In this document: positions 22,089-61,878 of the stretch, one piece after another
How the letters are laid out: each line of letters starts with the position of its first letter
How positions within the stretch are numbered: the stretch's first letter is position 1
NCBI GenBank assembly: GCA_965262715.1
Contig: OZ253553.1
Span: 128,001 to 192,000, forward strand
From: Bdellovibrionales bacterium
Lineage (GTDB): Bacteria > Bdellovibrionota > Bdellovibrionia > Bdellovibrionales > JAUICD01
Direction: 5' to 3'
Length of the DNA: 64,000 nucleotides
Notes under the pieces: generated by a model
The model's database searches: none
What the model was told of the DNA's origin: nothing
What the model saw: the letters and a program-made list of their open reading frames with translations, nothing else
Position numbers and translations under genes: made by a program

Positions 22089-22236
22089 CTGTATCACTAA
22101 AAATGAACTGGCCTCTGGCCATTTTTGGATAGTCAGCCTGACGATTTACATCGTCAGAAAATGCTGACTATCTCAAAAACCTGTTCATTTTTAGTAGGGA
22201 GACTCCCCTCGTTTCTTTACAGAATGTTAAGGAAAT
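22089..22236 (+). repeat. Structured ~150-bp repeat, family SR copy A
   Basis: ctgtatcactaaaaatgaac...gttcatttttagtagggagac...gttaaggaaat with nested stems. Confidence 0.9.
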
Positions 22237-22300
22237 CGTCCTTTTGCTATGTCTCCTCTTTCTCCCTTACAAATCACTCCAAATCTTTTATGGCTAATAA

Positions 22301-22400
22301 AAAATTGATTTTTAAGCCAAAGACGAGATCTTCCGCAGATGAGATCGCTTTTTGGCGATCTTATCGAGGACTTCGAGGATTAGCTTAAAATATCAATTTT
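22301..22400. repeat. ~100-bp MITE-like hairpin, family HB copy 1
   Basis: aattgatttttaagc...gcttaaaatatcaatt terminal IR; homologs at 29865 and 36884. Confidence 0.85.
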
Positions 22401-22871
22401 CAGCTTAAGGAAAACTTCTATTTCCTTTACTATCCACTCTCCTCCTATGTTTTCAAATAATTAAGTTTAGGAAGTTATAAACCATTCCCTTAGCCAATTT
22501 ATGATAGTTTAAGAAGGTTATTTTGAATATTTTTTAATGACTGCGTTGTTAAAAAGATTACCCCTTACTCGATGAATTAGGTTAAGTCTATATGCCATTT
22601 AAAAGCAAGTAAAAGATATGACCTTTTATATTTTTTTATTCACGGATAAATAAGTAAAAATAAACCTTAAAACACCTACAAAGAGATACCTACTTTTGTC
22701 ATTAAAATGACAAAAATAGTCACTTTTAGCACTGCGTCAAATCCTCTCCCTTGCACTGTGATTGAAAAACGACTGTTTTGTGATATGGCATTTTTCTTGC
22801 AACTTGACTCATGTTTTAAGCTTGTATCTTTCAATAATTTTAATTTTTTTATAATGTAAAGGAGTTCTTTT

Positions 22872-23561
22872 ATGAAACAATTTTTTAATCTAATAACTAT
22901 AACATGTTGTTTAGCGATAATAGTAGCATGTAGTAATGATAAACAAAGACCATTAATTCTCTTGATTGGCAATGATGCTTCAAGCAATGGTGCTTTAGGC
23001 AATGGTGCTTCAGGCATTAATGGAGTATTTTTTGATCAACCATCAATTAGAAAAGAGGCTTCATTTAAGTTTCATCATGAAATATCAGACGCATGTTTTA
23101 ATGCTGAACTAGAAGAAACACATCCAGAAAGGGCCAATAGTGGTTACAGTTATGTTCCGTATCGAATAGACGGAACTACTAATTTAAATATTATATTTAC
23201 TAACGAAGGAAATGTCAATATAGATGTGACAATAAACCCTAGTAACACTGCTTACGGGACTACGAATACTATCCTTGATAGTGCTCATATTTCTGTCAAT
23301 CAGACTGTGAGAGATTTTCTGGACAATTCGAGCCTTGAGGTTAACAATAGTCAGGTTACATGGTCAGACTCAGACACTAATTTGCTTCCACTGTTACAAT
23401 TAAACACTAAAAATGCAACAGTCGAGTTAGTAGAACAAAAAGTCGAAGGTGAGTCGGTATGGTTAACATTTGAAACAAACTATGTATCAACTGTTACATC
23501 ATCACCAGATTGTATGGATTCAAATTCAAAATCGGTTTTGGAAATTAAAACAGAGCAGTAA
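22872..23561 (+). CDS. Hypothetical lipoprotein
   Basis: RBS aaggag, lipobox IVAC, three 15-bp tandem units (NDASS/NGALG/NGASG). Confidence 0.75.
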   Translation: MKQFFNLITITCCLAIIVACSNDKQRPLILLIGNDASSNGALGNGASGINGVFFDQPSIRKEASFKFHHEISDACFNAELEETHPERANSGYSYVPYRIDGTTNLNIIFTNEGNVNIDVTINPSNTAYGTTNTILDSAHISVNQTVRDFLDNSSLEVNNSQVTWSDSDTNLLPLLQLNTKNATVELVEQKVEGESVWLTFETNYVSTVTSSPDCMDSNSKSVLEIKTEQ

Positions 23562-23659
23562 TTTTCTTTCTAGTATAATGAAATAGATATTTAGAAAGAA
23601 ATCTATTACATCAATCTTAGAAATCAATAGCTCTAAATCTGCAATCTAGTCATTTAACT

Positions 23660-23692
23660 TAGGAGCCGGGACTTAAAATGCCGGCTTCCTTG
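23660..23692. terminator. Hairpin between convergent genes
   Basis: aggagccgg...ccggcttcct stem. Confidence 0.5.
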
Positions 23693-23737
23693 TTAATTCA
23701 TTAACTTGTTAACTTACTAACAAGAAAGCCTTTATAT

Positions 23738-24676
23738 TTATAAGTTTGATAATTGAGAGACAAGGCTTTTAACTGCATTTACAGAATGATCAAACTGTTT
23801 TTGCTCCTCCTCATTGAACTTAACTTCTATGACTTTCTCTAAACCATTAGCTCCTAAAACAGCTGGCACTCCAACAAAAAGATTTTGCACACCAAACTCT
23901 CCCTCTAAATAAGCTGTACAAGGCAGTATACGGTTTTCAGCCTTCAAGATAGCCTCTGCCATCTGAACAGCACTGGCAGCAGGAGCATAATAGGCAGACC
24001 CTGTTTTTAAAAGCCCTACAATTTCAGCTCCACCTTTTTGAGTCCTTTCTATCAACGCATCCACCCTACCTCGATCTAAAAGCTCTAAAAGAGGAACTCC
24101 CCCAACAGAACAGTGGCGAGGCATAGGCACCATGGTGTCCCCATGGCCACCCAAAACAAATGCATGCACATCCTTAACTGAAACAGATAGCTCCTTTGCA
24201 ATAAAAGCTTTAAACCGAGCTGTGTCTAAAACTCCTGCCATCCCCATAATGCGATTTCTAGGAAAATCAAGCTCCCTCTTAGCAATATAGGCCATAGCAT
24301 CTAAAGGATTAGAAACAACAATCACCACACTGTTAGGGCTATACTGTTTGATACCAGAGCAGACCTCTTTCATGATCTTAGCATTTACAGCTAACAGATC
24401 ATCACGGCTCATCCCTGGTTTGCGAGGAAGGCCTGCTGTTACAATGATCAAATCAGATCCTGCAGTATCAGCATAATCTTTAGTACCTGTTACCATACAA
24501 TCAAAACCATCCACAGGCGAAGATTCTAACAAATCAAGAGCTTTGCCTTTAGCTACACCCTCATTGATATCAAGTAAGATGACGTCTCCTAATTGTTTAA
24601 AAGCCAAAAGATGAGCACATGTTGCCCCAACAAAACCACTACCAATCACTGTAATTTTCTTTCTTTGAAACGTCAT
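23738..24676 (-). CDS. mdh: Malate dehydrogenase (LDH-like)
   Basis: GSGFVG, RKPGMSRDDL, VSNPLD, LGGHGD, LKTGSAYYAP. Confidence 0.96.
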   Translation of the reverse strand: MTFQRKKITVIGSGFVGATCAHLLAFKQLGDVILLDINEGVAKGKALDLLESSPVDGFDCMVTGTKDYADTAGSDLIIVTAGLPRKPGMSRDDLLAVNAKIMKEVCSGIKQYSPNSVVIVVSNPLDAMAYIAKRELDFPRNRIMGMAGVLDTARFKAFIAKELSVSVKDVHAFVLGGHGDTMVPMPRHCSVGGVPLLELLDRGRVDALIERTQKGGAEIVGLLKTGSAYYAPAASAVQMAEAILKAENRILPCTAYLEGEFGVQNLFVGVPAVLGANGLEKVIEVKFNEEEQKQFDHSVNAVKSLVSQLSNL

Positions 24677-25010
24677 ACTTCCCCCTTTTATAACTTGTAA
24701 TATCCCTAGATCTCACTGCAAAGATATTTCCGACAGTTTGAGAAATAGTTTGCCAGTTGACCTAATGACTGACTTCCAGAAAAAATATGGAGAATCCCCT
24801 CTTCCTATGCTAATGAAGGTTTCCTCTTACTATTTTCTCTTCTTATAAATCACCCAACCCTTTATAGTAAGATCATCTATATATATCATCATTTATTTGT
24901 ATTTGTAATCTTATTTTAAAATGACTTTGGCAAAAACATAAATACTTGTGCGGTATGGTATACTCTCTACTCAAATTGACTGCCATACTCCCTTATGATA
25001 TAAGGCAAGT

Positions 25011-27089: not shown

Positions 27090-27174
27090 GTTTTTCTTTT
27101 ATTCTCTAGGTTCTTTGAGAATGAATCATTTTTAAACAACTACAAACTCAAAGGCTGCAATCTTGTAATTTAAG

Positions 27175-27558: not shown

Positions 27559-27769
27559 CTTAAAATTATAAAAATTACATAAAGTTAGTTATAAATTGAT
27601 TTAAAACGACCTGAATCTATTCCTTTATAAATTCACAAAATAATATTTAAGCATTTATCATTTTAAGCCGATAAATAATGATATATGATAATTAAAAGAG
27701 GTTTCATAAGTTCCTTAGATCTTTAAGGATATATCAATAATACTACTAAGTTGACTGGTTATAATAAGT

Positions 27770-29002
27770 ATGAAAAAAAGTATAAAATTTTCTTCTCTCA
27801 TCTTTATAGTATTAATGCTCACTTTAACAATCTCTTATCAGAATTGTAATTTTGATAACAGTGGATCAACTCTTTCTACTTCACGATATGCTTTTAATGA
27901 ACAGATAAGCACTTCAACTTTCAAAGGGACTCTCGATTCTGATTGTATGACTTCATCTCAATACAATACTTGTCTCTTTTTAAAAAACCCTGTTGCTCAA
28001 AATGGAAGTCCATTTGATCCTCCTATTACATTTTCTACAGATCTATCATCTATACAAACTTATGGAGTTAACATCACAGATACTATAGGGGATTTTCTCA
28101 CAAATGAAACTTACAATATAGTTATTAACTGGGATGAGGCTCAAAGAACTCAAGTAAAAACAGATGGAACCTGGAAATTTGAATATGCAAATGACTCCAA
28201 TCATCATGTCGCGCAATTGATGGCTTATTATTGGTTAAATTATCAAATAAATTATATGCAGCAAAAGGCAAGATGGTATGCAGAAGATCAAAATATTCAA
28301 GTTGATGCCCTAAATTCTGATTTAGAAAATGAGGCCTACTTTAGTTCAAGTGAAAATAAAATTGCTTTAGGTTACTTTACCCTAAATGGAAAAGTTGAAG
28401 CTGCATTAAGTGCTGATATATTGCTCCATGAAGCCGCACATGCTTCATTTTATTACTCAAATCTAAGCAGAGCCACTTATAGTGATGCAACTCATAAATC
28501 TTGCTCAGAAGATAGAGCCACCTGTTGTAAGAGCTATGCAGGCTGTTTTAAAGCTATAAATGAAGGACAAGCTGACTTTCATTCACTTATTATCTTCTCC
28601 TCTTTAAATTCTTCTCTAACTCCGTTGATTGGAGATGGAGTCACCAATGAGCTAAGGTATGGGTTGGGAATTTGTATGCCTAGAAATATGGATTATCTCA
28701 GAAATCAATCAGTTACAGATGTGTACAACGGATGTGATTCAGAAAACGACTTACAAGGAGAGATTCATATGATGGGAGCATTATATGCCAGTATATGGTG
28801 GAATATTTATACACATCCCTCTGTCATTCAAGATGAAATTCTACAACTCTTTGTAGAACATCTACCTATTGTGTCTAGTGAAGATACATTTGAAAGTATA
28901 GCAACACGTATTTTAAACTTAGAAAATCAGAAGTTTAATGGAAAATATTACCAGATCATCTCGCAAGCCTTCACAGAAAGAGGTCTGATTCTCTCTCCCT
29001 AA
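27770..29002 (+). CDS. Lipoprotein zinc metallopeptidase (M4/M36-like catalytic domain)
   Basis: YQNC signal, NEAYF, LLHEAAH, INEGQADF, GEIH. Confidence 0.8.
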   Translation: MKKSIKFSSLIFIVLMLTLTISYQNCNFDNSGSTLSTSRYAFNEQISTSTFKGTLDSDCMTSSQYNTCLFLKNPVAQNGSPFDPPITFSTDLSSIQTYGVNITDTIGDFLTNETYNIVINWDEAQRTQVKTDGTWKFEYANDSNHHVAQLMAYYWLNYQINYMQQKARWYAEDQNIQVDALNSDLENEAYFSSSENKIALGYFTLNGKVEAALSADILLHEAAHASFYYSNLSRATYSDATHKSCSEDRATCCKSYAGCFKAINEGQADFHSLIIFSSLNSSLTPLIGDGVTNELRYGLGICMPRNMDYLRNQSVTDVYNGCDSENDLQGEIHMMGALYASIWWNIYTHPSVIQDEILQLFVEHLPIVSSEDTFESIATRILNLENQKFNGKYYQIISQAFTERGLILSP

Positions 29003-29151
29003 CTGTATCACTAAAAATGGTCTGGCCTCTGGCCACTTTCTGGTAATGACCCTGAAGGCTCACGCCTTCAGCAAATAGGTCATTACCTAGAAAGCCTGAC
29101 CATTTTTAGGAGGGAGACTACCTTCGTTGTTTAACATCATGTTAAGGAAAT
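29003..29151 (+). repeat. Family SR copy B
   Basis: Starts at the base after the peptidase stop; 29008-29117 identical to 29591-29700. Confidence 0.9.
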
Positions 29152-29167
29152 GTTTCCTTAAAATACA

Positions 29168-29220
29168 TCCGGCAAACCGGCAGTCTGGCAATCTGTATCA
29201 GGCAATAAGGATTCTGTTTT
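29168..29220 (+). repeat. Family R8 left arm upstream of four-helix-bundle gene
   Basis: ggcaaacc ggcagtct ggcaatct gtatcaggcaat (8-nt period). Confidence 0.75.
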
Positions 29221-29285
29221 AAATTTTTTCACCTAAAAAATTTCCTCCCAAGCCCTGGCGGGTTTTAATAAAGGAGGAAATTTTT

Positions 29286-29585
29286 ATGACGATGAAAAAA
29301 TTTAAAACTTATCAAGTAGCAGTTCAATTTTATCATAAATCTAATAGCTTAAAATTAAGAGAACCTCTTAGAAATCAATTTCAAAGAGCTTCTCTAAGTA
29401 TTGTTCTTAACTTAGCTGAAGGTAGTGCTAAGTTAACACCAAAAGATCGAAGAAAATTCTATAGAATTGCTTTTGGATCATTAAGGGAGGTTCAAGCTAT
29501 ATTAGATATCATCAACCATATTGAACTCATCAACGAAGCTGATAAATTAGGTGCTTACTTGTACAAATTATGTCAAAATACATAA
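29286..29585 (+). CDS. Four-helix-bundle protein (23S rRNA IVS protein / Avd-like family)
   Basis: RBS aaggagg; LRNQFQRASLSIVLNLAEG..K...DRRKFYRIAFGSLREV matches the family signature. Confidence 0.9.
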   Translation: MTMKKFKTYQVAVQFYHKSNSLKLREPLRNQFQRASLSIVLNLAEGSAKLTPKDRRKFYRIAFGSLREVQAILDIINHIELINEADKLGAYLYKLCQNT

Positions 29586-29586
29586 G

Positions 29587-29700
29587 TGTTTCACTAAAAA
29601 TGGTCTGGCCTCTGGCCACTTTCTGGTAATGACCCTGAAGGCTCACGCCTTCAGCAAATAGGTCATTACCTAGAAAGCCTGACCATTTTTAGGAGGGAGA
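29587..29700 (+). repeat. Family SR copy C (3'-truncated)
   Basis: Starts 2 nt after the four-helix-bundle stop; identical to copy B over 110 bp. Confidence 0.9.
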
Positions 29701-29702
29701 TG

Positions 29703-29851
29703 CTGTTTCCCTAAAAATAAACCTGCCTCTGGCAGTTTTTGGGCAGCCAGCCTGAAGACTTACGTCTTCAAGAAAATGCTGACTGCCTCAAAAATCCGTT
29801 TATTTTTAGGAGGGAGACTCCCTTCATTTCTTTACAGAATGTTAAGGAAAT
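29703..29851 (+). repeat. Family SR copy D
   Basis: cctaaaaataaac...gtttatttttagg variant directly after copy C. Confidence 0.88.
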
Positions 29852-29864
29852 CGCTGAGAGTGAA

Positions 29865-29963
29865 GAGTTGATGTTTTAAGCCAAAGACGAGATCTTCCGC
29901 AGATGAGATCGCTAAAAAGCGGTCCCATCGAGAACTTCGAGGATTGGCTTAAAACATCAATTC
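29865..29963. repeat. Family HB copy 2
   Basis: gagttgatgttttaagccaa...ttggcttaaaacatcaattc. Confidence 0.85.
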
Positions 29964-29975
29964 AAAGCTTTCTAT

Positions 29976-30010
29976 AAAAAAAGGGTTGGCACTTAAACCA
30001 ACCCTTTATA
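29976..30010 (-). terminator. Intrinsic terminator of the 30033-31073 gene
   Basis: aaagggttgg/ccaacccttt stem with T-run on minus strand. Confidence 0.7.
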
Positions 30011-30032
30011 ATCAAATTTAGATTTGACCACC

Positions 30033-31073: not shown

Positions 31074-31082
31074 GCTCCTTTA

Positions 31083-35713: not shown

Positions 35714-35755
35714 GTAAGTCCTCCATTGTCAATAATTGAAAAAAGGTTTTATAAA

Positions 35756-36667
35756 ATGCAAGAGATTTCTAATTTAAGGTTACAAATTGCTGGTTATCAA
35801 GTCATTTCTTTACCTACAGGTCTTTTTGGGTTGGATGGTGGGGCCATGTTTGGCACAGTGCCAAAAGTTTTGTGGGAAAAATCTCATCCAGCAGATGAAT
35901 CCAATCGCATTCAACTAGAAGCTAGAGCATTACTGCTTCTTTCCGATGATAAAAAAATTATCATTGATACAGGTAATGGAGCTGACTTTGTTATCAAATA
36001 TGGGACAAAATTAGGTCAAAAATTTGCCGAGATGTACAATATTTCTACGACAGGAAAACCTCCTATCTTAGATACTCTTGATCAACACGGATTAAAGCCA
36101 GAAGATATTACAGACGTCATCCTCACACATCTTCACTTTGACCATGCAGGTGGTGGAACAACAGCACAAGATGGAACTCTTGTTCCTACTTTTCCAAAGG
36201 CTACATATTATGTTCAAAAAGACAATTTAGAAACAGCAAAAAAACCGAATCTCAGAGAAAGGGCTAGTTATTTTCCAGCAAACTTTGAACCCCTCTTAAA
36301 CGCTGGAGTATTAGAGATTTTAGAGGGTCCCTTAGACAACTTACTACCTGGAATATCTTTGAAACTCAGTTACGGTCATACTAGAGGACAACAAAATGTC
36401 TTTATCTCAGATAGTAACAATACTCTAGTTTATTGCGCAGATGTCATTCCTACGGCCTCTCATGTGAGACTGGCTTGGGTAATGGGATATGATTTAAACC
36501 CAGTTTTATTGATTGAAGAAAAGCGTAAAATTTTAAAAGAAGCTGGAGAAAAAAATTGGCTTCTATTTTTTGAACATGATCCTTACATTGATTGCGCTAA
36601 AGTTCAATATGACTCCCAGAGACAAAACTGGACCGTCTCTGAGAAATTCTGTTTGTTATTTCACTAA
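35756..36667 (+). CDS. MBL-fold metallo-hydrolase
   Basis: LDGGAMFG, THLHFDHAGG, GHT, FEHD; ATG at 35756 preferred. Confidence 0.9.
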   Translation: MQEISNLRLQIAGYQVISLPTGLFGLDGGAMFGTVPKVLWEKSHPADESNRIQLEARALLLLSDDKKIIIDTGNGADFVIKYGTKLGQKFAEMYNISTTGKPPILDTLDQHGLKPEDITDVILTHLHFDHAGGGTTAQDGTLVPTFPKATYYVQKDNLETAKKPNLRERASYFPANFEPLLNAGVLEILEGPLDNLLPGISLKLSYGHTRGQQNVFISDSNNTLVYCADVIPTASHVRLAWVMGYDLNPVLLIEEKRKILKEAGEKNWLLFFEHDPYIDCAKVQYDSQRQNWTVSEKFCLLFH

Positions 36668-36820
36668 AATGCATCCTCTGTTTCACTAAAATGCATCTAG
36701 CCTCTGGCTACTTTCTGGCGATAACCCTGATGACTTCATCAGAAAATGGTTATCGCCTAGAAAGCTTGATGCATTTTAGTAGGGAGACTCTCCTCATTTT
36801 TTAACATCATGTTAAGGAAA
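36659..36820 (+). repeat. Family SR copy E preceded by a duplicated 5' stub
   Basis: tcactaaaatgcatc occurs twice (36661, 36683); actaaaatgcatc/gatgcattttagt outer stem. Confidence 0.88.
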
Positions 36821-36883
36821 CTTTCCTTTTACTATCTTTTCTCTTTCTCTCTTACAAATCACCTAAATCTTTATAGCTAATAA

Positions 36884-36981
36884 GAATTGATGTTTTAAGC
36901 TAAAGACAATATCTTCCGCAGAGTGATCGCTACACAAGCGATCACTCGAGGACTTCGAGGCTTAGGTTAAAACATCAAGTC
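36884..36981. repeat. Family HB copy 3
   Basis: gaattgatgttttaagc...ggttaaaacatcaagtc. Confidence 0.85.
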
Positions 36982-37006: not shown

Positions 37007-37155
37007 CTGTATCACTAAAAATGGTCTGGCCTCTGGCCACTTTCTGACAGTAAGCCTGACAGTCTGCACTGTCAGCAAGTAGCTTACTGTCTAGAAAGCT
37101 TGACTATTTTTAGGAAGAAGATACTCCTCATTCTTTAACATCATGTTAAGGAAAT
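37007..37155 (+). repeat. Family SR copy F
   Basis: ctgtatcactaaaaatggtc...gttaaggaaat; near-identical to reverse complement of 49102-49251. Confidence 0.9.
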
Positions 37156-43531: not shown

Positions 43532-43583
43532 CTTAAATTAATGGGTAGTATTTATCAAACTATCTCCACCATTTAATTATCAA

Positions 43584-45284
43584 CTACTGCTGCTTAGGAG
43601 CTTCTACTACTGCAGGATCTACATTACCAGCAGCAGGATCTACATTACCAGCAGCAGGATCTACATTACCAGCAGCAGGATCTACATTACCAGCAGCAGG
43701 ATCTACATTACCAGCAGCAGGATCTACATTACCAGCAGCAGGATCTACATTACCAGCAGCAGGATCTACATTACCAGCAGCAGGATCTACATTACCAGCA
43801 GCAGGATCTACATTACCAGCAGCAGGATCTACATTACCAGCAGCAGGATCTACATTACCAGCAGCAGGATCAGCAGTTACATCAGGATCAGCAGTTACAT
43901 CAGGATCAGCAGTTACATCAGGATCAGCAGTTACATCAGGATCAGCAGGTGCTATTACTACAGCAAAATCATTAAGTTCAAAACTATGTCCAGTAGCAAC
44001 TGTTGCCATCATAGCAATTCCATCATCATCAGTCATAGCAATTCCTTGATCATTAGTCATAGCTATATCTTTAAGTAATTCAAGAACAAGAGAGAATCCT
44101 TCACCATTAACGTTTCTTGTTAGTAAACGAGCACTGTAAGCTGTACCATCTTCATCAGTAAGACCTTCAAGAGAAGTAATTATACCACTCAAGTCGTCCT
44201 CTTCTAGTACACTACCCATTGCATTTGGATCAAGGCCATTACCATCTTCACCAATTGCTCTTCTAAAACTGTCTCTAGCCTCTGTAGCACTACCATCTGC
44301 CATTTCAGTAACATGAGAGATGATAATAGGATCAGCATCTGTTTTTGATAACTCAACCCAGATTGATCCTTCATAACTCAAATCTGTTGCCTCATTAAAA
44401 TTGCTCATATCTTCATCTGTAGTCAACCAAACTGCTTGAGTAATAGTCACATAACCATTTCTTTCACTAAGAAGTGTCTCAAGTTCATTTTCTGCATTTC
44501 CTTCACCTCCGTTAAACATATTTCTATAATCACGTATTGGACCGAAGTGTAATACAAAACGAGAGTTCAATGCACCATTGATTGTTGCTACTGTCTCACT
44601 TGCGACTTTCCCTTCTTCTATTACGATAAGTCCTTCAAGTGATTTAGTTGGTACAACAATCTCTTCAAATTCAATGTAGTGATTTGCAAGATAACCATCT
44701 GCTTCATATCGAAGAAGCCTAGCGGTATCTTCAGTAAAATCTGCTACTTTACCCTCTTCATTGGAAGGTAAAATATAAGTTGCATCTGCAGTCTCTATTT
44801 TGTTACTCAAATCATAATATTCATCACCTATAGACAATCCATTCACAACATTATTAGAAAGATCACGCATAACAGAGATATCGAGTTGATAATTCTCATC
44901 ATCATCATAATTTACAAGGTAAGCCTTAGCCTCTTCTTCTTCTGCTTCTATTGATGGTGTTGCCTCTACATTAGGTGCGCCCGTTGCTTTTATTTCAGCT
45001 TGCAGTTGTGCTCTAGCAACATCTTGAGATACTACACTCTCATCATTTAGGAAGCTCTCAAATACATCCCCTGATAGTTCAGGTGGAATATGTACAGCAT
45101 TTTTTGCACTGTATCGACTGGAATTATTCTTATCAAAATTAGCATTACTTAACTTAAGGTTGTTAGCTCGCCTCTGAATTTCATTAGGCTGATTTGTACC
45201 TGATGGGGAACATCCCGTCATCATAATTAATGCGCTCGTTATACCTAAAAGTGAAAGAATGGTTGATGGTGATTTTGCTCTCAT
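43584..45284 (-). CDS. Acidic lipoprotein with C-terminal tandem repeats
   Basis: RBS aaggagg, lipobox MTGC, (DPDVTA)4 and (AAGNVDP)12. Confidence 0.85.
   Translation of the reverse strand: MRAKSPSTILSLLGITSALIMMTGCSPSGTNQPNEIQRRANNLKLSNANFDKNNSSRYSAKNAVHIPPELSGDVFESFLNDESVVSQDVARAQLQAEIKATGAPNVEATPSIEAEEEEAKAYLVNYDDDENYQLDISVMRDLSNNVVNGLSIGDEYYDLSNKIETADATYILPSNEEGKVADFTEDTARLLRYEADGYLANHYIEFEEIVVPTKSLEGLIVIEEGKVASETVATINGALNSRFVLHFGPIRDYRNMFNGGEGNAENELETLLSERNGYVTITQAVWLTTDEDMSNFNEATDLSYEGSIWVELSKTDADPIIISHVTEMADGSATEARDSFRRAIGEDGNGLDPNAMGSVLEEDDLSGIITSLEGLTDEDGTAYSARLLTRNVNGEGFSLVLELLKDIAMTNDQGIAMTDDDGIAMMATVATGHSFELNDFAVVIAPADPDVTADPDVTADPDVTADPDVTADPAAGNVDPAAGNVDPAAGNVDPAAGNVDPAAGNVDPAAGNVDPAAGNVDPAAGNVDPAAGNVDPAAGNVDPAAGNVDPAAGNVDPAVVEAPKQQ
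43615..43938. repeat. Perfect VNTR: 12 x 21 bp (43615-43866) plus 4 x 18 bp (43867-43938)
   Basis: Units ggatctacattaccagcagca and ggatcagcagttacatca. Confidence 0.95.
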
Positions 45285-46279: not shown

Positions 46280-46289
46280 CTTTCACCCA

Positions 46290-46457
46290 CCCTAAAAATA
46301 AACCTGCCTCTGTATCACTAAAAATGAACTGGCCTCTGGCCATTTTTGGATAGTAAGCCTGACGATTTGCATCGTCAGAAAATGCTGACTATCTCAAAAA
46401 TCTGTTCATTTTTAGTAAACAGATACTTCTTATTTCCTAACACCATGTTAAGGGAAT
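46290..46457 (+). repeat. Family SR copy G (46310-46457) preceded by a D-type 5' stub
   Basis: ccctaaaaataaacctgcct then ctgtatcactaaaaatgaac...gttaaggga. Confidence 0.88.
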
Positions 46458-46577: not shown

Positions 46578-47855
46578 ATGCAAGGTGGGTTTGGAAACCA
46601 TATTACAAGTGAAGCTATTTTAGGGGCTGTGCCTAAAAATCAAAATAATCCACAGAAGCCACCTCTCGGCTTATATGCAGAACAAATCTCAGGGTCTGCT
46701 TTTACACAAAAACGTGCTGAGAACCTACGGTCTTGGATGTATCGTATATTACCATCAGTAAAGCATTCTGCTTATGAAGAGTTTTATCTAGAAAACTTCC
46801 TAACACCTCCGCTTAAAAAATCTTTTTGTTCTCCTATACAATACCGCTTTGACCCTCCTGAAATACGTAACACTCCCCATGATTTCTTAGAAGGTGTAAA
46901 GACAATAGCTGTTTCAGGTGATCGGCAGTGTGGTGTTGGTGTGCATTTATTTACTGCTAACACTTCTATGAAAGAGTGCTTCTTTTTAAACTCTGATGGT
47001 CATTTACTTATCCTCCCGCAAATAGGACATTTAGAATTGCACACAGAGTTTGGCCTTCTTGCCATAGCTCCTAAAGAAATGGCAGTGATTCCTAAAGGGA
47101 TCAAGTTTCAAGTCCATTTAAAAAGCCCTACAGCAAGAGGTTATATCTGTGAAAACTTTGGTTTTCCTTTTATTTTACCTGATCTAGGACCTATAGGCTC
47201 TAATGGACTTGCTAATCCTCGCCATTTTTTAGCGCCTTCTGCTTCCTTCAATGATCAAAAAGGTGAGTTTTACATTATCCATAAATTTGCAGGACAGTTT
47301 TTTAAAGCTCAGCTTGATTATCACCCTTTAAATGTTTTGGGTTGGTGTGGAAATTACTTTCCTTATAAGTATGATTTAACTCTTTTTAATGTCTTAAACT
47401 CAGTAAGTTTCGATCATACTGACCCTTCCATCTTTACAGTATTAACATCTCCTTCATTCAAAGATGGTCTTGCCAATGTTGATTTTGTGATTTTTCCTCC
47501 AAGATGGATCGTTGCAGAAAACACATTTCGTCCTCCTTATTACCATAGAAATATCATGAGTGAGTTTATGGGACTTATTTGTGGTGTTTATGATGCTAAA
47601 GAAGAGGGTTTTTTACCTGGAGGGAGCACCCTTCACAATAGTTTTGCAGCTCATGGTCCTGATGCGCAAGTATTTCAAAAAGCAAGTCAAAGTGAACTTA
47701 AGCCAGAGAAGCATGAAGGATCTTTAGCTTTTATGTTTGAGAGTTCTAGCCCTTTTACTGTGACTGATTATGCCCATAACGGACCTTTAAAACAAGACAA
47801 TTACAATCAATGTTGGCAAAATTTAAAAGATTATTTTAAGGACAGCAAGCTTTAA
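46578..47855 (+). CDS. hmgA: Homogentisate 1,2-dioxygenase
   Basis: GLYAEQISGSAFT, SWMYRILPS, GPIGSNGLANPR, FRPPYYHRN.MSEFMG, HGPD. Confidence 0.96.
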   Translation: MQGGFGNHITSEAILGAVPKNQNNPQKPPLGLYAEQISGSAFTQKRAENLRSWMYRILPSVKHSAYEEFYLENFLTPPLKKSFCSPIQYRFDPPEIRNTPHDFLEGVKTIAVSGDRQCGVGVHLFTANTSMKECFFLNSDGHLLILPQIGHLELHTEFGLLAIAPKEMAVIPKGIKFQVHLKSPTARGYICENFGFPFILPDLGPIGSNGLANPRHFLAPSASFNDQKGEFYIIHKFAGQFFKAQLDYHPLNVLGWCGNYFPYKYDLTLFNVLNSVSFDHTDPSIFTVLTSPSFKDGLANVDFVIFPPRWIVAENTFRPPYYHRNIMSEFMGLICGVYDAKEEGFLPGGSTLHNSFAAHGPDAQVFQKASQSELKPEKHEGSLAFMFESSSPFTVTDYAHNGPLKQDNYNQCWQNLKDYFKDSKL

Positions 47856-47969
47856 CCTAAATTCTCAAACTACTGCTTTAAAAATAACCTTTACTTAGAC
47901 AACCCTTTTTATACAAGAAATTAGAGGTAATAGGTACAAACGTTTATAGACTTTTACTGAAACAGCACG

Positions 47970-48130
47970 ATTCCCTTAACATGATGTTAAATAATGAGGA
48001 GTATCTCGTTTACTAAAATGCAGCAGGCTTTCTAGGTAGTCAGCTATTTGCTGACGATGTGAACCGTCAGGCTGACTACCAGAAAGTCGCCAGAGGCTTG
48101 CCTCGAGAGGCGACATGCATTTTAGTGAAA
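47970..48130 (-). repeat. Family SR copy H (minus strand, expanded side hairpin)
   Basis: Reverse complement reads tttcactaaaatgcat...tgcattttagt...ttaacatcatgttaaggga. Confidence 0.88.
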
Positions 48131-48222
48131 AAAAAATGAACACTGATATACATTGTATGTTAGATAAAGTTATGAACCGCTAGCAATGTTTATCAAAATT
48201 TTATTTTTGAGACTGGTTCTAA

Positions 48223-49101: not shown

Positions 49102-49251
49102 ATTTCCCTTAACATGATGTTAAAAAATGAGGAGTATCTTCTTCCTAAAAATAGTCAAGCTTTCTAGACAGTAAGCTACTTGCTGACAGTGCAGACTGTC
49201 AGGCTTACTGTCAGAAAGTTGCCAGAGGCCAGAGGCATTTTTAGTGATACA
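49102..49251 (-). repeat. Family SR copy I (minus strand)
   Basis: Reverse complement nearly identical to copy F. Confidence 0.9.
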
Positions 49252-49343
49252 ATGAAATAAAATGAATATTGTAAATTACTCTATTATCATATAGTTTATA
49301 AATGAGTGATATAGTTAGGGGTTTTTATTATAGGGGTTTTTAA

Positions 49344-52899: not shown

Positions 52900-52951
52900 T
52901 ATGTCTAAAAAGACCTTTCTTTTTTTCCAATTATGTGTTTATAATGAAGCC

Positions 52952-56259: not shown

Positions 56260-56282
56260 TAGGGCCAAATGAGGTGTACCCT

Positions 56283-57065
56283 TTATTTGGAGGATCCGTT
56301 CCATATTTTACTCACTTCTGAGATTCCCATTGTTGTTAATTCTCCTGTTTTCCGTTTAGCTTCAAATTCATTAGGTGATAAGTAACCTAATGAAGAATGT
56401 CGCCTTTTTTTATTATACATACCTTCGATAAACTTTGGAATACTTCTTAATACATCTTCAAAAGTTTTATATTCACACAGATGAACTTCTTCTCGTTTTA
56501 AAGAGCTAAAGAAAGATTCAACAAATGCATTATCCCAACAATTGGCTTTTCTCGACATACTGATCTTAAAGCCTTTTTCTTTAAGCTTGTAGGTATAATC
56601 TTTACTGGTGTATTGCACACCTTGATCACTATGATGAATACATCCTTTAGTATCTGATCTCTGCTCTAAACTCATCTCTAAAGCTCCTAAACAAAGCTCT
56701 GTGTTGATCTCTCTAGAAATAGCCCACCCTACAATCTTCCTTGAAAAAATATCTAAAATCACTGCTAAAAAAACAAAACCATCTTGAATCCTAATGTATG
56801 TGATATCTGTTACCCAAAGCTGGTTGGGTCTATTCACTTCAATGCCAAAAGTTAAATTCGGATAAACTCGATTTGAATGTTTAGAATCTGTGGTTGAAAC
56901 TCTAAAACCCTTGTAAATCAAAGCTTTTAAACCGTATTTCCGCATAATCCGAGCAATTCTCTTGCGGTTGGCTTTAATACTCTTCTCTTGCTCAAGTTCC
57001 AATTGAATACGACGTATTCCATACATCGGATATTTACACTGTATCCTCTCAATCTGCTCTTTCAA
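56283..57065 (-). CDS. IS3 transposase OrfB (rve integrase core)
   Basis: YGIRRI, WVTDITY, DIFSRKIVGW, HHSDQGVQY, DNAFVESFF; frame open upstream to the slippery site at 57230-57236. Confidence 0.93.
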   Translation of the reverse strand: MKEQIERIQCKYPMYGIRRIQLELEQEKSIKANRKRIARIMRKYGLKALIYKGFRVSTTDSKHSNRVYPNLTFGIEVNRPNQLWVTDITYIRIQDGFVFLAVILDIFSRKIVGWAISREINTELCLGALEMSLEQRSDTKGCIHHSDQGVQYTSKDYTYKLKEKGFKISMSRKANCWDNAFVESFFSSLKREEVHLCEYKTFEDVLRSIPKFIEGMYNKKRRHSSLGYLSPNEFEAKRKTGELTTMGISEVSKIWNGSSK

Positions 57066-57136
57066 ATCAAAATCCCTTTGCTCTCGCTCTTGCTGTGAAA
57101 CCTTTCTCTTGTAATAGTAGCTGCTTAAAGGTAATC

Positions 57137-57487
57137 CTAACGCTTTACACGTTTTTGAAATTGATCCAAATTCTTGCCAGTGATTACAGACGATCTCACG
57201 CTTCTCCTCTGTTGAAGCTCCTTTTTGGCCTTTTTTAAAAACTCGTTCTCTAAGCTGAGCTGTCCTACCTTTGCCTGAAGTGCATATATTTGTCTCTCTA
57301 GAGATCTCTCCCTTGATGAAGGGGTTCCCAAAGGTGTCCCTTGTTGATACTTCTTAAACCACTCTAAGACTGTTTGGCGATGAAGTTGATGCTCCCGGCA
57401 AATCTCTAACAAAGATCTGCCTTCATGCATCGATTTACAAATAGCTTCCTTAAATTCAACATTAAATCGTCTTCTTACTTTGCCCAT
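57137..57487 (-). CDS. IS3 transposase OrfA (HTH)
   Basis: RRFNVEFK...ICREHQL, ENEFLKK carrying A AAA AAG. Confidence 0.9.
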   Translation of the reverse strand: MGKVRRRFNVEFKEAICKSMHEGRSLLEICREHQLHRQTVLEWFKKYQQGTPLGTPSSRERSLERQIYALQAKVGQLSLENEFLKKAKKELQQRRSVRSSVITGKNLDQFQKRVKR

Positions 57488-57586
57488 GATCTTCCTCCTG
57501 ATCTTATAGCTTTTTATAGCTAAAATTCAGGAATCTCAAGTGAGTTACTTTATCACTTAACTCTCCAGTTTATGGGGTACAGACCA

Positions 57587-57745
57587 CTTAAGACTGGTAC
57601 AGTAGCGGGTGCCATTACTGGTCTTGGCACTCGTATTATTATTACCACTAACATTGCTCTACTTGCTATTAAAAGTATTGCTTATAGCATTTTTGAGAGG
57701 GCTTCATATTATCTCGAAACGGCAACCACTCCTAGTAATCCCTAA
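57587..57745 (+). pseudogene. Orphan 3' gene fragment abutting the IS3 end
   Basis: Open 52-codon frame from the first base after the IS: LKTGTVAGAITGLGTRIII...TTPSNP*. Confidence 0.5.
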
Positions 57746-57855
57746 TGAAAAATTTATGATATTGGCATAAAACAAAGTCAAAATAACAAATTGACATCCT
57801 TCGATAAGCCTTGTTCATCTTATATAAAGACAGTAAGCCTCAAGCACTCTAGGTC

Positions 57856-58818
57856 ATGTATTATACTGATAATGCGGACGGAGCTTATACAACAGAAAAA
57901 AGAGATTTTATGAAGATTTCACAGTTTTTCAGGAGCAATGTACATTTCCATCTGACTTATTTTGTGATGAGTGGGATATTATGTTTGCAATTTACAACAG
58001 TTATGGGGTTTGACATGAGCGATGAGGGAATAGAAAAAGCTATCCGACAATACCTATCTATCATCTATGAACCTTTTGACGAAGAAATAGATGCAGACTT
58101 AATCAATCGTTACATTCAAGTTATTAAAAGACATTCAGATGTTTTTCAGTACCTAGCAGATGCTCAAACCGCAACTGAAGTTTTACCTTATCTTGATGAA
58201 TACAATGTTTTGACACTCAAGTACACAAATCGACCTTTAGACCCAGACGTGAAAGTCATATTTACAAACCACCCATTAAAAAGAACTCCTCATGATTCAA
58301 GCTCCTATAATGCCGGAATTTGTGACCCAATAACTCGTGTTATTCTTCTAGATCGCAACTTTTGGGAGTATCATAACCAGAATGAAAGATTGAAAAAATC
58401 TGTTTTGTTCCATGAGTTAGGACATTGTGATCTATATCGAAATTATAGTAATGAAGAAGATAATTCAGAAGGTCCGATTGATCATACACATTTTTCTTTA
58501 ATGACTGATAGAGGACTCTTTTTTTCAGCAAGTCTCTTATTACCTGACCCATTCTTAAAGGCATCGCATGCAAGAGCTATTAGACCATTAGAAGAAGCTT
58601 ATAAAAATATATTTGATGCCAACTTAGATAGGGTTTTAGAGGCCATGTTTGAGGAGCTTTTCTCTGAAGCAAGAACTTCCTTTAAAGACTTAATTATTGG
58701 CAAAGTATGTTCTTACAACAATTCTCAAGAAATATGCTCTTATCAAAGCCTATCTCCAGAGGAAATGTTTCAAACTTTTCGCAGAGCTATAGACAGACAT
58801 AGAAATCTTATCTTATAG
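57856..58818 (+). CDS. Secreted hypothetical protein with HExxH zinc-binding motif
   Basis: LFHELGHCDL, AGIC, hydrophobic leader (likely start 57910). Confidence 0.7.
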   Translation: MYYTDNADGAYTTEKRDFMKISQFFRSNVHFHLTYFVMSGILCLQFTTVMGFDMSDEGIEKAIRQYLSIIYEPFDEEIDADLINRYIQVIKRHSDVFQYLADAQTATEVLPYLDEYNVLTLKYTNRPLDPDVKVIFTNHPLKRTPHDSSSYNAGICDPITRVILLDRNFWEYHNQNERLKKSVLFHELGHCDLYRNYSNEEDNSEGPIDHTHFSLMTDRGLFFSASLLLPDPFLKASHARAIRPLEEAYKNIFDANLDRVLEAMFEELFSEARTSFKDLIIGKVCSYNNSQEICSYQSLSPEEMFQTFRRAIDRHRNLIL

Positions 58819-58873
58819 GCATAGATAATAGCAGTATAGACCTTTGAAAAAAACAATGACTGAGTCAGTAAAA

Positions 58874-59707
58874 TTAAGGTTTAGCTGTGAGGATAATACC
58901 TGAATACACTATATCTATAAACTTATCCTCTGGTTTTGGAAATGGAGAAGCCTTATCAATTGCAGTAAGTACTATCTCATCAAATCTAGTATCTCCAGAT
59001 GATTTAATGAGTTCCCTGTTTATAACATATCCATTAGGATCTAAGTAAATCTTTACAACTGTATTTAAATTATCAGAAACTGCAAGCCATTGCGGCAACT
59101 CCCAGTAAGATTGAATATGACTGTGAAGCACGCCGATGTAATTATCATAATCTAATTTATCAAGCCCTTCTAAGGCTGTTCCTGGCACGATTCTATTACC
59201 TTTAACAAGATCTTCCTCTTCTAGCATGCTTTGAACTTGCTTGAGATGTTTAAGGCGTTCTATAGCTGATTGACCTACTTTTTGCAATTGTTTGTCATAA
59301 ACAAAAGAAGGTTTTGTCACTTCCTGTGTTTTTTGAGACTTTTTTGGAGTTTGAACCTTTTTCACTGGAGGTTTAGGAGGAACTTCAGCTTTTTTTAATT
59401 GAGGTTCAGGTTTTTTGGTCTCTATTTTAGGTGGGACCTTTGTTTGATTGATCACAACGCTCTTACGAGGTGCTTGTTTGTCAGGTAGAGCTACCATATC
59501 TACTTTGATAGCAGGAATATAAGTTATATCCTCTCCTTTAAAAAAAAAGAGATTGATTATAAATAAAGAAAAGATAAGACAATGAAATAAAATCGACCAT
59601 CCTAAAAAAGAATTAAAATGCAATTGGCCATTAATCTGTCTCAAAAGGTTTATCTCTTTCTTATTACATGAGTTTTTATCTAAACTGCGCTCTTGGAAGA
59701 GTAACAA
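58874..59707 (-). CDS. tolA: TolA/TonB-family protein
   Basis: S..FH TM motif, K/P-rich linker, C-terminal SSGD..FD....AI.KASPFP; follows tolQR. Confidence 0.8.
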   Translation of the reverse strand: MLLFQERSLDKNSCNKKEINLLRQINGQLHFNSFLGWSILFHCLIFSLFIINLFFFKGEDITYIPAIKVDMVALPDKQAPRKSVVINQTKVPPKIETKKPEPQLKKAEVPPKPPVKKVQTPKKSQKTQEVTKPSFVYDKQLQKVGQSAIERLKHLKQVQSMLEEEDLVKGNRIVPGTALEGLDKLDYDNYIGVLHSHIQSYWELPQWLAVSDNLNTVVKIYLDPNGYVINRELIKSSGDTRFDEIVLTAIDKASPFPKPEDKFIDIVYSGIILTAKP

Positions 59708-60098
59708 GTCCTATATTAGCAATACCTGCGGCTTTAACCTCCCCTATAACCTCAGCAACAACCCCATAATCTACACTTCTATCTGCTTGAATATAAACTT
59801 GCTTATTTGTTCTAGTTTCAAAAATAGCCATAAGCTTTTGTCTCAAAGATCTTATAGACAAATTTGCAGCTCCAGCTTTGATCTGACCATCTTTGTGAAT
59901 AATTAAAACAAAAGGGTCTTCATGAACAGCAACACCTGAACTAGCAGTCTCTGGTAAATTAACTTCAATCCCCTGTTGCATCATAGGGGTAGTGACCATA
60001 AAGATAACTAGGAGCACAAGCATAACATCCACAAAAGGAGTGATATTGATTTCACTCAACATGCTATCTCTAGAATCTTTGCTTTGATGCATACTCAT
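59676..60098 (-). CDS. tolR: TolR/ExbD protein
   Basis: EINITPFVDVMLVLLVIFM, IQADRSVDYG. Confidence 0.9.
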   Translation of the reverse strand: MSMHQSKDSRDSMLSEINITPFVDVMLVLLVIFMVTTPMMQQGIEVNLPETASSGVAVHEDPFVLIIHKDGQIKAGAANLSIRSLRQKLMAIFETRTNKQVYIQADRSVDYGVVAEVIGEVKAAGIANIGLVTLPRAQFR

Positions 60099-60855
60099 CA
60101 GAAGTACTCCTAAAGAATTTTTTCTTAGCTATATTTAAAAAATCAGAATTAAAATGATCCAAATCAACTTCTATTTGTTTAACTGTTGATAGATATTGAT
60201 TGTAAAAAATAACAGCTGGAATGGCAACGAGCAAGCCAAAAGCCGTTGCAATAAGAGCTTCAGAGATACCAGGGGCTACAACTGCTAAATGAGCAGCACC
60301 TGTTGTACCGATCTTTTGGAATGCATTCATTATTCCCCAAACAGTTCCAAAAAGACCTATAAAAGGAGATACACTACCGATAGTTGCAAGAAAGCTTAAA
60401 CCAAATTCTAGTTTTGTTGTTTCTAAGCCTGTCGCCTTTCTCAAAGATCTTTTGACACTATCTATATCTACAATATTAAAAACTTGTTCCTTACTTAAAG
60501 ATTTATGTTTTAAGGACTCCCCCGCGTGCTTCAATTCCTCAAAACCGGCATTAAAGATCACCTCTGATGGGCTATCATAATTGTTGCTATAGCTTCCATG
60601 ACTAATAGCATTCCAAGAAGAGGCATTCCAAAAACGCTTTAAAAAAAGCGAGTCTGCTTGTTTGATTTTTGAAAATTGCTTAAATTTCATAAAAATGATT
60701 GACCATGACAAAATAGAAAAAACAGCAAGTAATAATAGAGTTAATTGAACCACTGGGCTTGCAGACAATATAGAATCAATTGCATTGAAATGAATATCTA
60801 CATTCAAATTCCCACTACTATCTTCAATTGTGTCTTGAGCATATAACAAAGTCAT
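60070..60855 (-). CDS. tolQ: TolQ/ExbB proton channel protein
   Basis: LATIGSVSPFIGLFGTVWGIM, VAPGISEALIATA. Confidence 0.9.
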   Translation of the reverse strand: MTLLYAQDTIEDSSGNLNVDIHFNAIDSILSASPVVQLTLLLLAVFSILSWSIIFMKFKQFSKIKQADSLFLKRFWNASSWNAISHGSYSNNYDSPSEVIFNAGFEELKHAGESLKHKSLSKEQVFNIVDIDSVKRSLRKATGLETTKLEFGLSFLATIGSVSPFIGLFGTVWGIMNAFQKIGTTGAAHLAVVAPGISEALIATAFGLLVAIPAVIFYNQYLSTVKQIEVDLDHFNSDFLNIAKKKFFRSTSDEYASKQRF

Positions 60856-61007
60856 AAATTCATTATTCCTCTAAAGTTACAGATAAAGTTTGATATTTAT
60901 AGTGAAAAAGATTTATCTTACAAAATCAACCGTTGTTTAAGCTGTTGCTCGAGGACTACGAGATCTTGCTATAAATATCAAATCAATGGAAAAACAAGCC
61001 TATAATT

Positions 61008-61553
61008 TTAACTTTTTTCAATTTGCGCAAAATCAAGTTCTACTGGTGTAGGTCTTCCAAAAATATTTACTAAAACCTTAACCGTACCTTTTTCTGGATG
61101 AACCTCTTCTACTGTACCATTAAAGTTACTAAAAGGTCCTTCTTTTACATGAACAGATTCGCCAGGTCTAAAAGATACTTTATGTCTTGGTTTATCCACA
61201 CCTACAGTCATTTGCTTTGTGATTTTTTGAACTTCGTGATCTGGAACAGGAGATGGATTGGTGGAATGACCTACAAAACCTGTGACCTTTGTAGAACCTT
61301 TTATCAAATGCCAAGTTTCTTTAGTTAGGTGCATTTGTACAAAAATATAGCCAGGGAAAAACTTTTGTGCGGTTGTTTGTTTTTGACCCTTAACAAGTTC
61401 TACCACATTCTCTGTAGGGATTAAGACTTGAGCGAACTGGTCTTCAAACCCTTTTTCTTTAACACGGCTTTCAATAGAAGCTTTAGCTCTAGCCTCATAA
61501 CCTGTTTGGGTATGAACAACATACCATTGAAAATTTTCTGGTGATTTACTCAT
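61008..61553 (-). CDS. nusG: Transcription termination/antitermination factor NusG
   Basis: WYVVHT, FFPGYIFV, GPF..F.G, IFGRPTPVEL. Confidence 0.97.
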   Translation of the reverse strand: MSKSPENFQWYVVHTQTGYEARAKASIESRVKEKGFEDQFAQVLIPTENVVELVKGQKQTTAQKFFPGYIFVQMHLTKETWHLIKGSTKVTGFVGHSTNPSPVPDHEVQKITKQMTVGVDKPRHKVSFRPGESVHVKEGPFSNFNGTVEEVHPEKGTVKVLVNIFGRPTPVELDFAQIEKS

Positions 61554-61636
61554 TTCTTCCTACTTTGATTATAATAAGTCGTAGATTATTCATTTATATT
61601 ATTGTTCTCTTAAGTAGTTTTCAACAATATAAATTA

Positions 61637-61878
61637 AAACTCATCTCAAAATTACTTCTAATATCCACGTTGTCAAAACAACCTCTTACTTAAGTACCAT
61701 ATAAAAGGACTGTTTCACTCAAAATGGACCTTTCCGGCTTTCCGTAGGGCCACTATCGTGGCTCTCGTCAAGTCCGTCCATTTTGAGTAAGAAGCCATCT
61801 TTCTTTAGTTATATTATGTTTTGTATTTTGCAATTTTGTATTATTTACCGCTATCATGTATTTTTGAAATGGCTTCTA
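61637..61878. repeat. Degenerate MITE-like element containing a divergent SR-like hairpin (61710-61788)
   Basis: Ends aaactcatctcaaaa / ttttgaaatggcttcta (related ends near 46485 and 54189); inner ctgtttcactcaaaatggac...gtccattttgagt. Confidence 0.6.

Follow-up and report, generated by a model that had tools for sequence, protein, structure and literature searches.

SR, a fold-constrained mobile repeat with exchangeable helices in a genus of Bdellovibrionales

We analyzed a 64,000-nucleotide stretch of a Bdellovibrionales bacterium genome (assembly GCA_965262715.1, contig OZ253553.1, positions 128,001 to 192,000; hereafter the window), in which a first-pass annotation made from the sequence alone had noticed about ten copies of a repeat, SR, with compensatory changes in its stems. 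SR is a non-coding repeat of ~146 bases, and the conclusion that it is a real, fold-constrained mobile repeat with an unusual mode of evolution is well supported by the data presented below. The genome holding the window (G000; 2.94 Mb, 33.6% GC, single contig) was compared with that of a congener (G001; 2.57 Mb, the first 2.4 Mb of which were covered by the SR search), with two SR-free genomes (G002 and G003), and with a genome carrying SR on three small contigs only (G004). The evidence on in-place stem exchange, the DNA mini-hairpin signal, the insertion footprints and the partner exclusions comes from the present analysis.

All ten copies reported by the annotation are present according to a covariance model, which placed the copy given as 49102 at 49103-49252. 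Seven of them are themselves sequences of the alignment behind that model. A first profile, built from seven window copies, gave 493 matches in G000 and none in the reversed genome, and a refined profile gave 453 non-overlapping matches in 223 clusters (59 kb in total), 294 of them near full length. The corresponding numbers for G001 are 1,167 matches, 671 near full length and 137 kb in total. Tandem arrays are common. Identity between nearest-neighbor copies is mostly 93-98% in G001 and mostly 85-90% in G000, and dispersed sets of identical copies number 27 in G001 and none in G000; G001 is the more recently active of the two genomes.

In the orientation used by the first-pass annotation, which we call plus, SR is composed of a fixed end motif, the outer stem P1, the helices P2, P3 and P4, a junction, the return arm of P1, and a tail. 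P2 is a 5-bp side hairpin with the loop TCT (90/98), P3 is a stem interrupted by one bulged T, and P4 is an apical hairpin followed by a 5-6 nt A-rich bulge, past which come a 3-nt junction, the P1 return arm and a 39-nt tail closing with a fixed motif. The reverse strand of this arrangement is predicted to fold into a three-way junction. Unaided, RNAalifold recovered P1 to P4 and left the tail unpaired, and folding z-scores for three copies ranged from -6 to -12 on both strands against 200 shuffles. Within a set of 25 copies, 97.6% of the cells pair, compared with 82.4% in shuffles and 31-48% in slid controls. The compensatory stem variants listed by the annotation are real, as 28 of 42 pairs change on both sides, a number equaled by none of 500 shuffles.

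Covariation was measured as corrected mutual information (MI-APC) over 10,296 column pairs in 98 representatives, which were obtained from 116 unique cores by clustering at 93% after exclusion of copies outside 138-156 nt. The covarying part consists of four nested helices, and each of the 15 highest-ranking column pairs is a base pair of P1 to P4. The bulged T is retained in 96 of 98 representatives in G000 and in 190 of 195 in G001, and the 5-6 nt bulge and the 3-nt junction are also kept across copies, so that both bulges pointed out by the annotation recur over hundreds of copies. Its 3' hairpin, by contrast, is not a covarying helix, having a fixed 3' arm, a drifting 5' arm and no pair in the top 40 columns. 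The proposed selection on a single-stranded fold is borne out by the nested covariation, the kept bulges, the strand-biased wobble pairs and the strand-specific loops.

Helices are exchanged as units between SR copies. The two arms of P1, which lie 80 nt apart, share 1.58 bits of mutual information, while the 5' arm shares only 0.60 with the adjacent hairpin; the arms of P2 share 2.2 bits and those of P3 1.9, compared with 0.25-0.74 between different helices. An orthologous comparison was possible for four copy pairs at two loci common to G000 and a third congener. The alignable flanks of these pairs are 0.89-0.93 identical and the tails 0.85-0.90 (median for random pairs, 0.74); the bodies are just 0.67-0.80 identical, a level typical of random pairs (median 0.69), and most of the pairing survives. 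One of the four pairs has kept P1 and P3a and exchanged P3b and P4. Since flanks and tail are conserved while the body is as divergent as in random pairs, this pattern suggests that resident copies may be rewritten in place.

The strand that folds can be approached through mismatches and loops. Mismatches within P1-P4 on the plus strand of G000 comprise 95 A.C vs 36 G.T (73 vs 22 without two subfamily columns), and those in G001 219 vs 107; on the reverse strand, such A.C mismatches become wobble pairs. Read on that strand, the apical loop is G-N-N-A, and of 581 unique G001 cores, 465 have GCGNNAGC on the minus strand and one has it on plus; the G000 counts are 34 of 155 and none. Because of this wobble bias and loop polarity, the strand that folds is most likely not the one described by the annotation but its reverse complement (minus). 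As stated in the passages of PMC13037366 on this motif, GCGNNAGC with any N forms a DNA mini-hairpin whose stability greatly exceeds that of the RNA counterpart and which is nuclease resistant, is poorly bound by single-strand-binding protein, and is present at phage single-strand origins. Loops in G001 include 313 GNRA, 166 GNYA and 48 GNNNA, and this tolerance of pyrimidines at the third position modestly favors DNA over RNA. Of the two molecules suggested by the annotation, a single-stranded DNA (ssDNA) substrate is thus the better fit and a mobile structured RNA the worse.

The element has a narrow distribution. Of 41 genomes searched with BLAST, 3 have SR; of 71 in the order searched with the covariance model, 3 have it, the only occurrence beyond G000 and G001 being three congener-like contigs of G004 (C1, C4 and C11), to which the SR copies of that genome are confined. 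These contigs are likely mis-binned, because they are 82-92% identical to G000 at the DNA level vs 65-73% for the main contigs of G004, and they are treated here as DNA of the third congener. The tail motif occurs 296 times in G000, 596 times in G001 and 9 times in G004, and 0-2 times, the control level, in the other 78 of 81 genomes. Among the genomes searched, SR is confined to one Bdellovibrionales genus. A scan of a wider public genome set, using a pattern that catches only 25 G000 copies, returned 7 stretches in 2 Bdellovibrionales records, the matches carrying titles of Bdellovibrionales metagenome-assembled genomes. Two metagenome scans gave no match, and a viral scan gave one, judged by eye to be without the SR body. 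Contigs assembled from four short-read runs show breaks and piled depth at every SR copy, as a real repeat would give, and no interpretable empty-site or circle joint; two of these runs may derive from the source sample. Rfam 15 gave no match in the window at the gathering threshold, and in E-value mode on 28900-30000 all 19 matches fall far below gathering. A literature search, with the taxon not among its terms and subscription journals mostly outside it, returned no description of SR, which does not show absence from print.

The ends and junctions of SR are imprecise. Instead of the fixed 5' start given by the annotation, the bases before TTTCAC-type starts are ragged (CTG in 153 of 368, TTG in 57, TTT in 43). 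Comparison of filled and empty sites, which the annotation had recommended, yielded pairs and no uniform footprint: extra nucleotides in filled paralogues number 0-6 beside the end motif and 0-19 on the tail side, with duplications in some cases (25 nt at genome position 1012675, ~80 nt elsewhere), deletions of up to ~23 nt in others, and a near-clean insertion at window copy 47970, which sits inside another repeat and for which the empty paralogues indicate ~1 nt lost and 19 extra nt on the tail side. Duplications of at least 15 nt accompany 5 of 82 isolated copies in G000 (control mean 0.2) and 0 of 60 in G001. The two ends of SR form a loose inverted repeat of 12-17 nt. Spacers at head-to-tail junctions are not fixed, and hence no circle junction can be defined.

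Several hot spots were observed. The end motif begins 0-4 nt past the tRNA CCA in 5 of 38 tRNA calls in G000 and 4-6 nt past it in 3 of 33 in G001, and it also abuts tRNA 5' ends. At the CRISPR-cas locus of G000 (476742-490620), SR lies at the same position of three repeats, each repeat being duplicated; these three copies at the foot of the repeat hairpin may share one origin. The side loop of SR itself is a third hot spot: ahead of many full copies stands a fragment derived from a different SR copy and ending at the P2 loop, whose CTG bases agree with the usual SR leader. Such stacked fragments are 26-28 nt long in 27 of 38 distinct cases in G000 and 26-27 nt in 57 of 119 in G001. Fold-back duplications of 14 nt and 15 nt occur at two loops, at 92 and 16 loci, respectively. 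As a side observation, four G000 sites (2823907-2824093, 937316-937716, 1103535-1104264 and 2198524-2198955) have tRNA features tied to SR or to degenerate copies; among them are a tRNA-Pro-like gene that an SR relative disrupts, duplicated tRNA 3' ends flanking SR copies, and four degenerate tRNA-Trp copies in tandem ahead of the intact gene. ARAGORN returned only noise in intron mode, and it placed a tmRNA gene at G000 positions 23340-23694, outside the window.

Genes of the enzyme classes that the annotation suggested looking for exist in G000. The single Y1 transposase of G000 is an IS200-type TnpA with its own hairpins, not flanked by SR, and G001 has no Y1 match. Five reverse transcriptase (RT)-like frames are found in G000 (Table 1), namely one of group II intron type, one broken copy of the same, and three unclassified. 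In G001, Pfam gave no RT match across the whole genome, nor did a custom profile run against 2.4 of its 2.57 Mb (best E 0.42); SR-free G002 has one RT match. Only two tyrosine recombinases (320 and 185 aa) were found in G000, in a search made with no IntI-specific profile, and neither is beside an SR array. The IS110 recombinase PF02371 has no match in G000 or G001 and one in SR-free G002 (the control matched 6 of 14), and the search for Y2 transposases of the IS91 type gave no match in five genomes, as did its control. The readable insertion sequence (IS) ends in G000 differ from SR for IS1634 (4 of 5 types), IS30 (left), IS256, IS5 and IS3 (right), a comparison from which IS1595, one IS1634 type and the IS ends of G001 were left out. 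Among single-copy enzyme genes, none has SR at its flanks in both G000 and G001. With no integron-type or HUH partner found and with imprecise ends, the analogies to attC sites and REP/HUH substrates drawn in the annotation are not supported. The annotation would have given up its proposal on a match to Rfam or to IS ends, or on covariation without bulge conservation; there is no Rfam match, the readable IS ends differ, and the bulges are kept.

Other candidates were rejected as well. Cas1/casposase genes are found in G000, G001 and SR-free G003 alike and so do not discriminate, each of five genomes has one GIY-YIG gene with an open frame of 612-653 aa, and PF01896 and PF13366 were absent from all five. 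A dif-like XerCD site was dismissed, as the two bases before ATGTT vary and the tail motif stays at its control level in the 78 genomes mentioned above.

Two gene families are found near SR at high frequency. The first, PF05635, which we take to be an Avd-like protein, has 34 intact or partial loci in G000 and 30 in G001, of which 21 and 30, respectively, have SR within 300 bp, compared with a background of 15% of the open reading frames (ORFs) in G000 and 31% in G001. In G001, the linked SR is downstream and antisense in 27 of 30 cases, and 101 fusions of the SR tail motif to heptamer arms were counted. The PF05635 cassette with heptamer arms (window 29169-29585) is often interrupted by SR near codons 64-70. 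As a specific partner of SR the family was rejected, the first apparent exact co-occurrence having fallen with the likely mis-binning in G004; four PF05635 loci on the G004 main contigs have no SR within 1.5 kb, and of 151 genomes in the order, 58 have the family. Its local association with SR in G000 and G001 still stands. The second family is Rpn (PF04754), with SR within 400 bp of 48 of 50 ORFs in G001 and of 10 of 34 in G000. The G001 genes are heavily flanked and interrupted by SR, one end of which can be read as a start codon plus Lys-Gln. Rpn was rejected as a dedicated SR mobilizer, since its linkage is seen in G001 only. Both families may be cargo or landing sites, because they are expanded in SR-free genomes too and their gene copies are not independent. 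The parts of PMC5350276 that treat RpnA describe it as a non-specific nuclease, the products of which serve as polymerase primers and could lead to DNA joining through primer-template switching.

The explanation we favor, with belief and doubt evenly balanced, is that SR spreads as folded reverse-strand ssDNA and enters the chromosome through primer-template switching, with free 3' ends next to hairpins as the sites of copying. It builds on the observed copies, fold, module exchange, ragged ends and hot spots, and it postulates the release of ssDNA. The released reverse strand would be protected, or made into a substrate, by its fold and GNNA mini-hairpin cap, and only copies still able to fold would be propagated. 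Its unpaired 3' end would then form a 1-6 nt duplex with a chromosomal 3' end located next to a hairpin, and a host polymerase would copy the SR strand and go back to the chromosome via microhomology. Resident copies would be preferred targets since both end motifs are in common, and in this way resident bodies would be rewritten, 26-nt end fragments stacked, and tandem arrays seeded. For a releasing or nicking factor, the expanded Rpn nucleases and the PF05635 protein that travels with SR are no more than candidates. A bolder version, on the doubtful side, would see SR as a selfish DNA shape without a transposase of its own, a nuclease-resistant strand inserted or re-inserted by host repair or Rpn-primed synthesis, with hairpin-bounded sub-modules being swapped. 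If that were true, the fold would be the only thing selected as the population evolves, and SR ends would, in one genome, also carry four-helix-bundle and Rpn cargo.

A number of observations weigh against spread as ssDNA. No intermediate was seen and no enzyme identified in the partner search of G000 and G001. GNRA loops are still in the majority, and the wobble bias could stem from single-strand deamination instead of selection. The replication-strand bias is weak, 73 to 101 in G000 (p=0.04) and 184 to 203 in G001, where the skew is scrambled. The junctions at tRNA 3' ends are equally compatible with RNA priming, and long duplications are rare in both genomes. The case for in-place rewriting comes from two loci, where insertions recurring at a hot spot could leave the same pattern. 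The linkage to Rpn is inconsistent between the two genomes, and SR-free G003 has 16 Rpn matches. Finally, dispersed identical copies are lacking in G000, and SR activity there may therefore be old.

Some of the same data would also suit an RNA intermediate. SR might be a SINE-like (short interspersed element) retro-element whose reverse-strand RNA is copied by a trans-acting RT from a target or tRNA 3'-OH, with template jumps and maybe with help from Avd-like PF05635. The G.U bias and GNRA majority on one strand, the junctions at mature tRNA ends, the variable duplications, the stacked fragments derived from different templates, the PF05635 linkage in both genomes and the RT-like frames of G000 are all in line with this account. 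It is nevertheless unlikely: the more recently active G001 has no RT match and SR-free G002 has one, about one third of the four-base G-N-N-A loops are GNYA, and PF05635 is multi-copy in SR-free genomes. Still less probable is that SR is the non-autonomous partner of a dedicated transposase, either a HUH/RAYT-like enzyme reading the ssDNA fold, of whose substrates the bulged base and hairpins are reminiscent, or a DDE enzyme such as that of IS1634 reading imperfect terminal inverted repeats. The loose inverted repeat at the SR ends and the inclusion of the 61710 subfamily in an element with terminal inverted repeats fit the latter version, as do IS1634-family elements in both genomes, long variable duplications being known for this family from the passages of PMC2266710 concerned. 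However, the sole Y1 of G000 is of the IS200 type with hairpins of its own and G001 has none, the readable IS ends are unlike SR, no single-copy enzyme gene is SR-flanked in both genomes, both SR ends are ragged, and deletions are present.

We consider it very unlikely that SR is neutral palindromic junk, in which arm-to-arm template switching mends the stems, gene conversion shuffles the copies, and the fold is unselected. The hairpin-born duplications of 14 and 15 nt do indicate local fold-back synthesis, and conversion is expected among hundreds of copies with common tandem arrays. Yet the single bulge, the 5-6 nt bulge and the 3-nt junction persist, the loops hold one polarity instead of flipping, and dispersal to new sites is left unexplained; the conservation of bulges and loops largely refutes this explanation. 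The least probable account, to which we give hardly any credence, is that of a domesticated regulatory element acting in mRNA leaders or trailers through stability, termination or processing. The end motif does face the nearest gene, lying before starts in 99 vs 16 cases in G001 and 42 vs 9 in G000, and an SR fragment can provide a stop codon (36659-36680). On the other side, among 1,417 G001 proteins with a best hit in G000, SR is upstream in both genomes for 36 and in one only for 290, and SR copies interrupt Rpn, PF05635 and tRNA genes.

SR bears on the question of how short structured repeats, such as RPE, bcr1, REP-like families and heptamer cassettes, move without an evident transposase. 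It offers rich natural data, with more than 900 near-full copies in two genomes, empty sites, and orthologous copies with swapped stems, and its hot spots are precise (tRNA CCA, the foot of the CRISPR repeat, and its own loop). It is also a caution that an alignment of many copies can covary strongly without the repeat being a structured RNA gene.

The SR copies of the window and their neighboring features are listed in Table 1. The structured repeat SR2 has variable stems of its own and a further copy at about 60900-60990; a version of it is also found in the right end of the G000 IS30 element (25-26 copies). The divergent 61710 copy is inside a 243-bp element with terminal inverted repeats (61636-61878). 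This element and another at about 47780-48220 host SR-like hairpin modules, and one filled/empty pair of such elements was found by comparison with contig C11 of G004 (near 28774-28980). A further repeat, D14 (14240, 27416 and 31186), resembles the left end of the G000 IS5-family elements and, on this sequence resemblance, is likely an IS5-derived miniature inverted-repeat transposable element (MITE). IS elements, a duplication and a tandem repeat occupy 1150-7969, 4321-5973, 13132-14118, 56283-57487 and 43549-43968, comprising a 3.3-kb duplication around a DDE transposase (putatively IS1634-type), IS5-type and IS3-type elements, and a 21-bp coding tandem repeat.

Table 1. SR copies and associated features in the window, and RT-like frames of G000 (genome coordinates). 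For SR copies the strand given is the likely folded one.
Feature	Position	Strand	Remarks
Full SR copy	22089..22236	(-)	167.7 bits; 3' end 19 bp upstream of sucC start codon
SR2, second hairpin module	22308..22395	(.)	Separate repeat; after pyrimidine-rich linker behind some SR copies
Full SR copy	29003..29151	(-)	163 bits; directly behind stop codon of ORF 27770-29002
7-9 nt repeat arm of four-helix-bundle cassette	29169..29195	(+)	
Four-helix-bundle gene PF05635 (23S_rRNA_IVP)	29286..29585	(+)	E 9.6e-17; enclosed by SR copies
SR copy without tail	29586..29701	(-)	Model positions 34-149; body matches 29003 copy; next copy immediately after
Full SR copy, another stem type	29703..29851	(-)	168 bits; then SR2 at 29873-29959
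22-nt stacked SR end fragment	36659..36680	(-)	Provides TAA stop of ORF 35726-36667
Full SR copy, shortened apical hairpin	36678..36821	(-)	150.5 bits; then SR2 at 36892-36977
Full SR copy	37007..37155	(-)	154.9 bits
Stacked end fragment, different stem type	46287..46312	(-)	Ends at side-loop CTG; judged by eye
Full SR copy	46310..46457	(-)	155.6 bits
Full SR copy, one 14-nt insert in side hairpin	47970..48133	(+)	126 bits
Full SR copy	49103..49252	(+)	140.5 bits
Divergent SR subfamily	61710..61828	(-)	Same closing stem, different interior; 43.8 bits vs 119-168
RT-like frames, G000	2650522-2652294, 1928475-1929872, 1880068-1880928, near 1434261, near 1775273		

Among known systems, attC sites have a strand-specific ssDNA fold with an extrahelical base and sequence-variable stems, together with a conserved GTT crossover and cassette arrays. 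SR is similar in its strand-specific fold, extrahelical bases and variable stems; it differs in that its outer stem lacks a conserved GTT crossover, its junctions are imprecise and cassette arrays are absent; no integron integrase was identified. The bridge-RNA ends of IS110/IS1111 go with a recombinase, PF02371, that is absent from G000 and G001. Stem-loop interspersed repeats include ERIC and Correia in addition to bcr1, RPE, RUP, BOX and Bru-RS. Like the last five, as covered by the passages of PMC2267715, SR belongs to a class of non-coding, clade-restricted repeats of 100-170 nt with a conserved fold and an often unclear mobilizer; it differs from them in being without a fixed target duplication and in having helices that are shuffled as units and apparently rewritten in place. 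Those passages describe no covariation of the SR kind, and the words 'covariation' and 'compensatory' do not occur in them.

With REP/REPIN-RAYT systems, as the relevant part of PMC3116915 presents them, SR has in common the hundreds of extragenic copies, a hairpin predicted in ssDNA, the clusters or arrays, and mobility in trans. The REPIN is a doublet of conserved short palindromes, whereas SR is one 146-nt three-way junction with stem sequences free to vary. A cognate RAYT (Y1, PF01797) flanked by the repeat marks these systems; G000 has the IS200-type TnpA only and G001 none, and the SR ends are ragged, unlike REP cleavage products. MITEs of the IS1634/IS1549 type, in the portion of PMC2266710 devoted to them, share with SR the occasional long variable direct repeats and a loose terminal inverted repeat, but the SR ends are unlike those of the resident IS1634, duplications are missing from most copies, and some insertions come with deletions or extra bases. 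Judged by the IS ends that could be read, SR has neither the shared IS terminal inverted repeats nor the precise ends with a family-typical duplication length of DDE-mobilized MITEs. The initiation signals of phages G4, St-1 and alpha3 and of ssiA, in the account given by sections of PMC13037366, resemble SR in having a GCGNNAGC-capped hairpin on one strand; they differ in being single origins on phage or plasmid DNA, and a priming role for SR would be an analogy only. By the features tested, SR lies outside REP-RAYT, DDE-MITE, attC and IS110 systems, and it is a non-autonomous folded repeat like REPINs and other stem-loop repeats.

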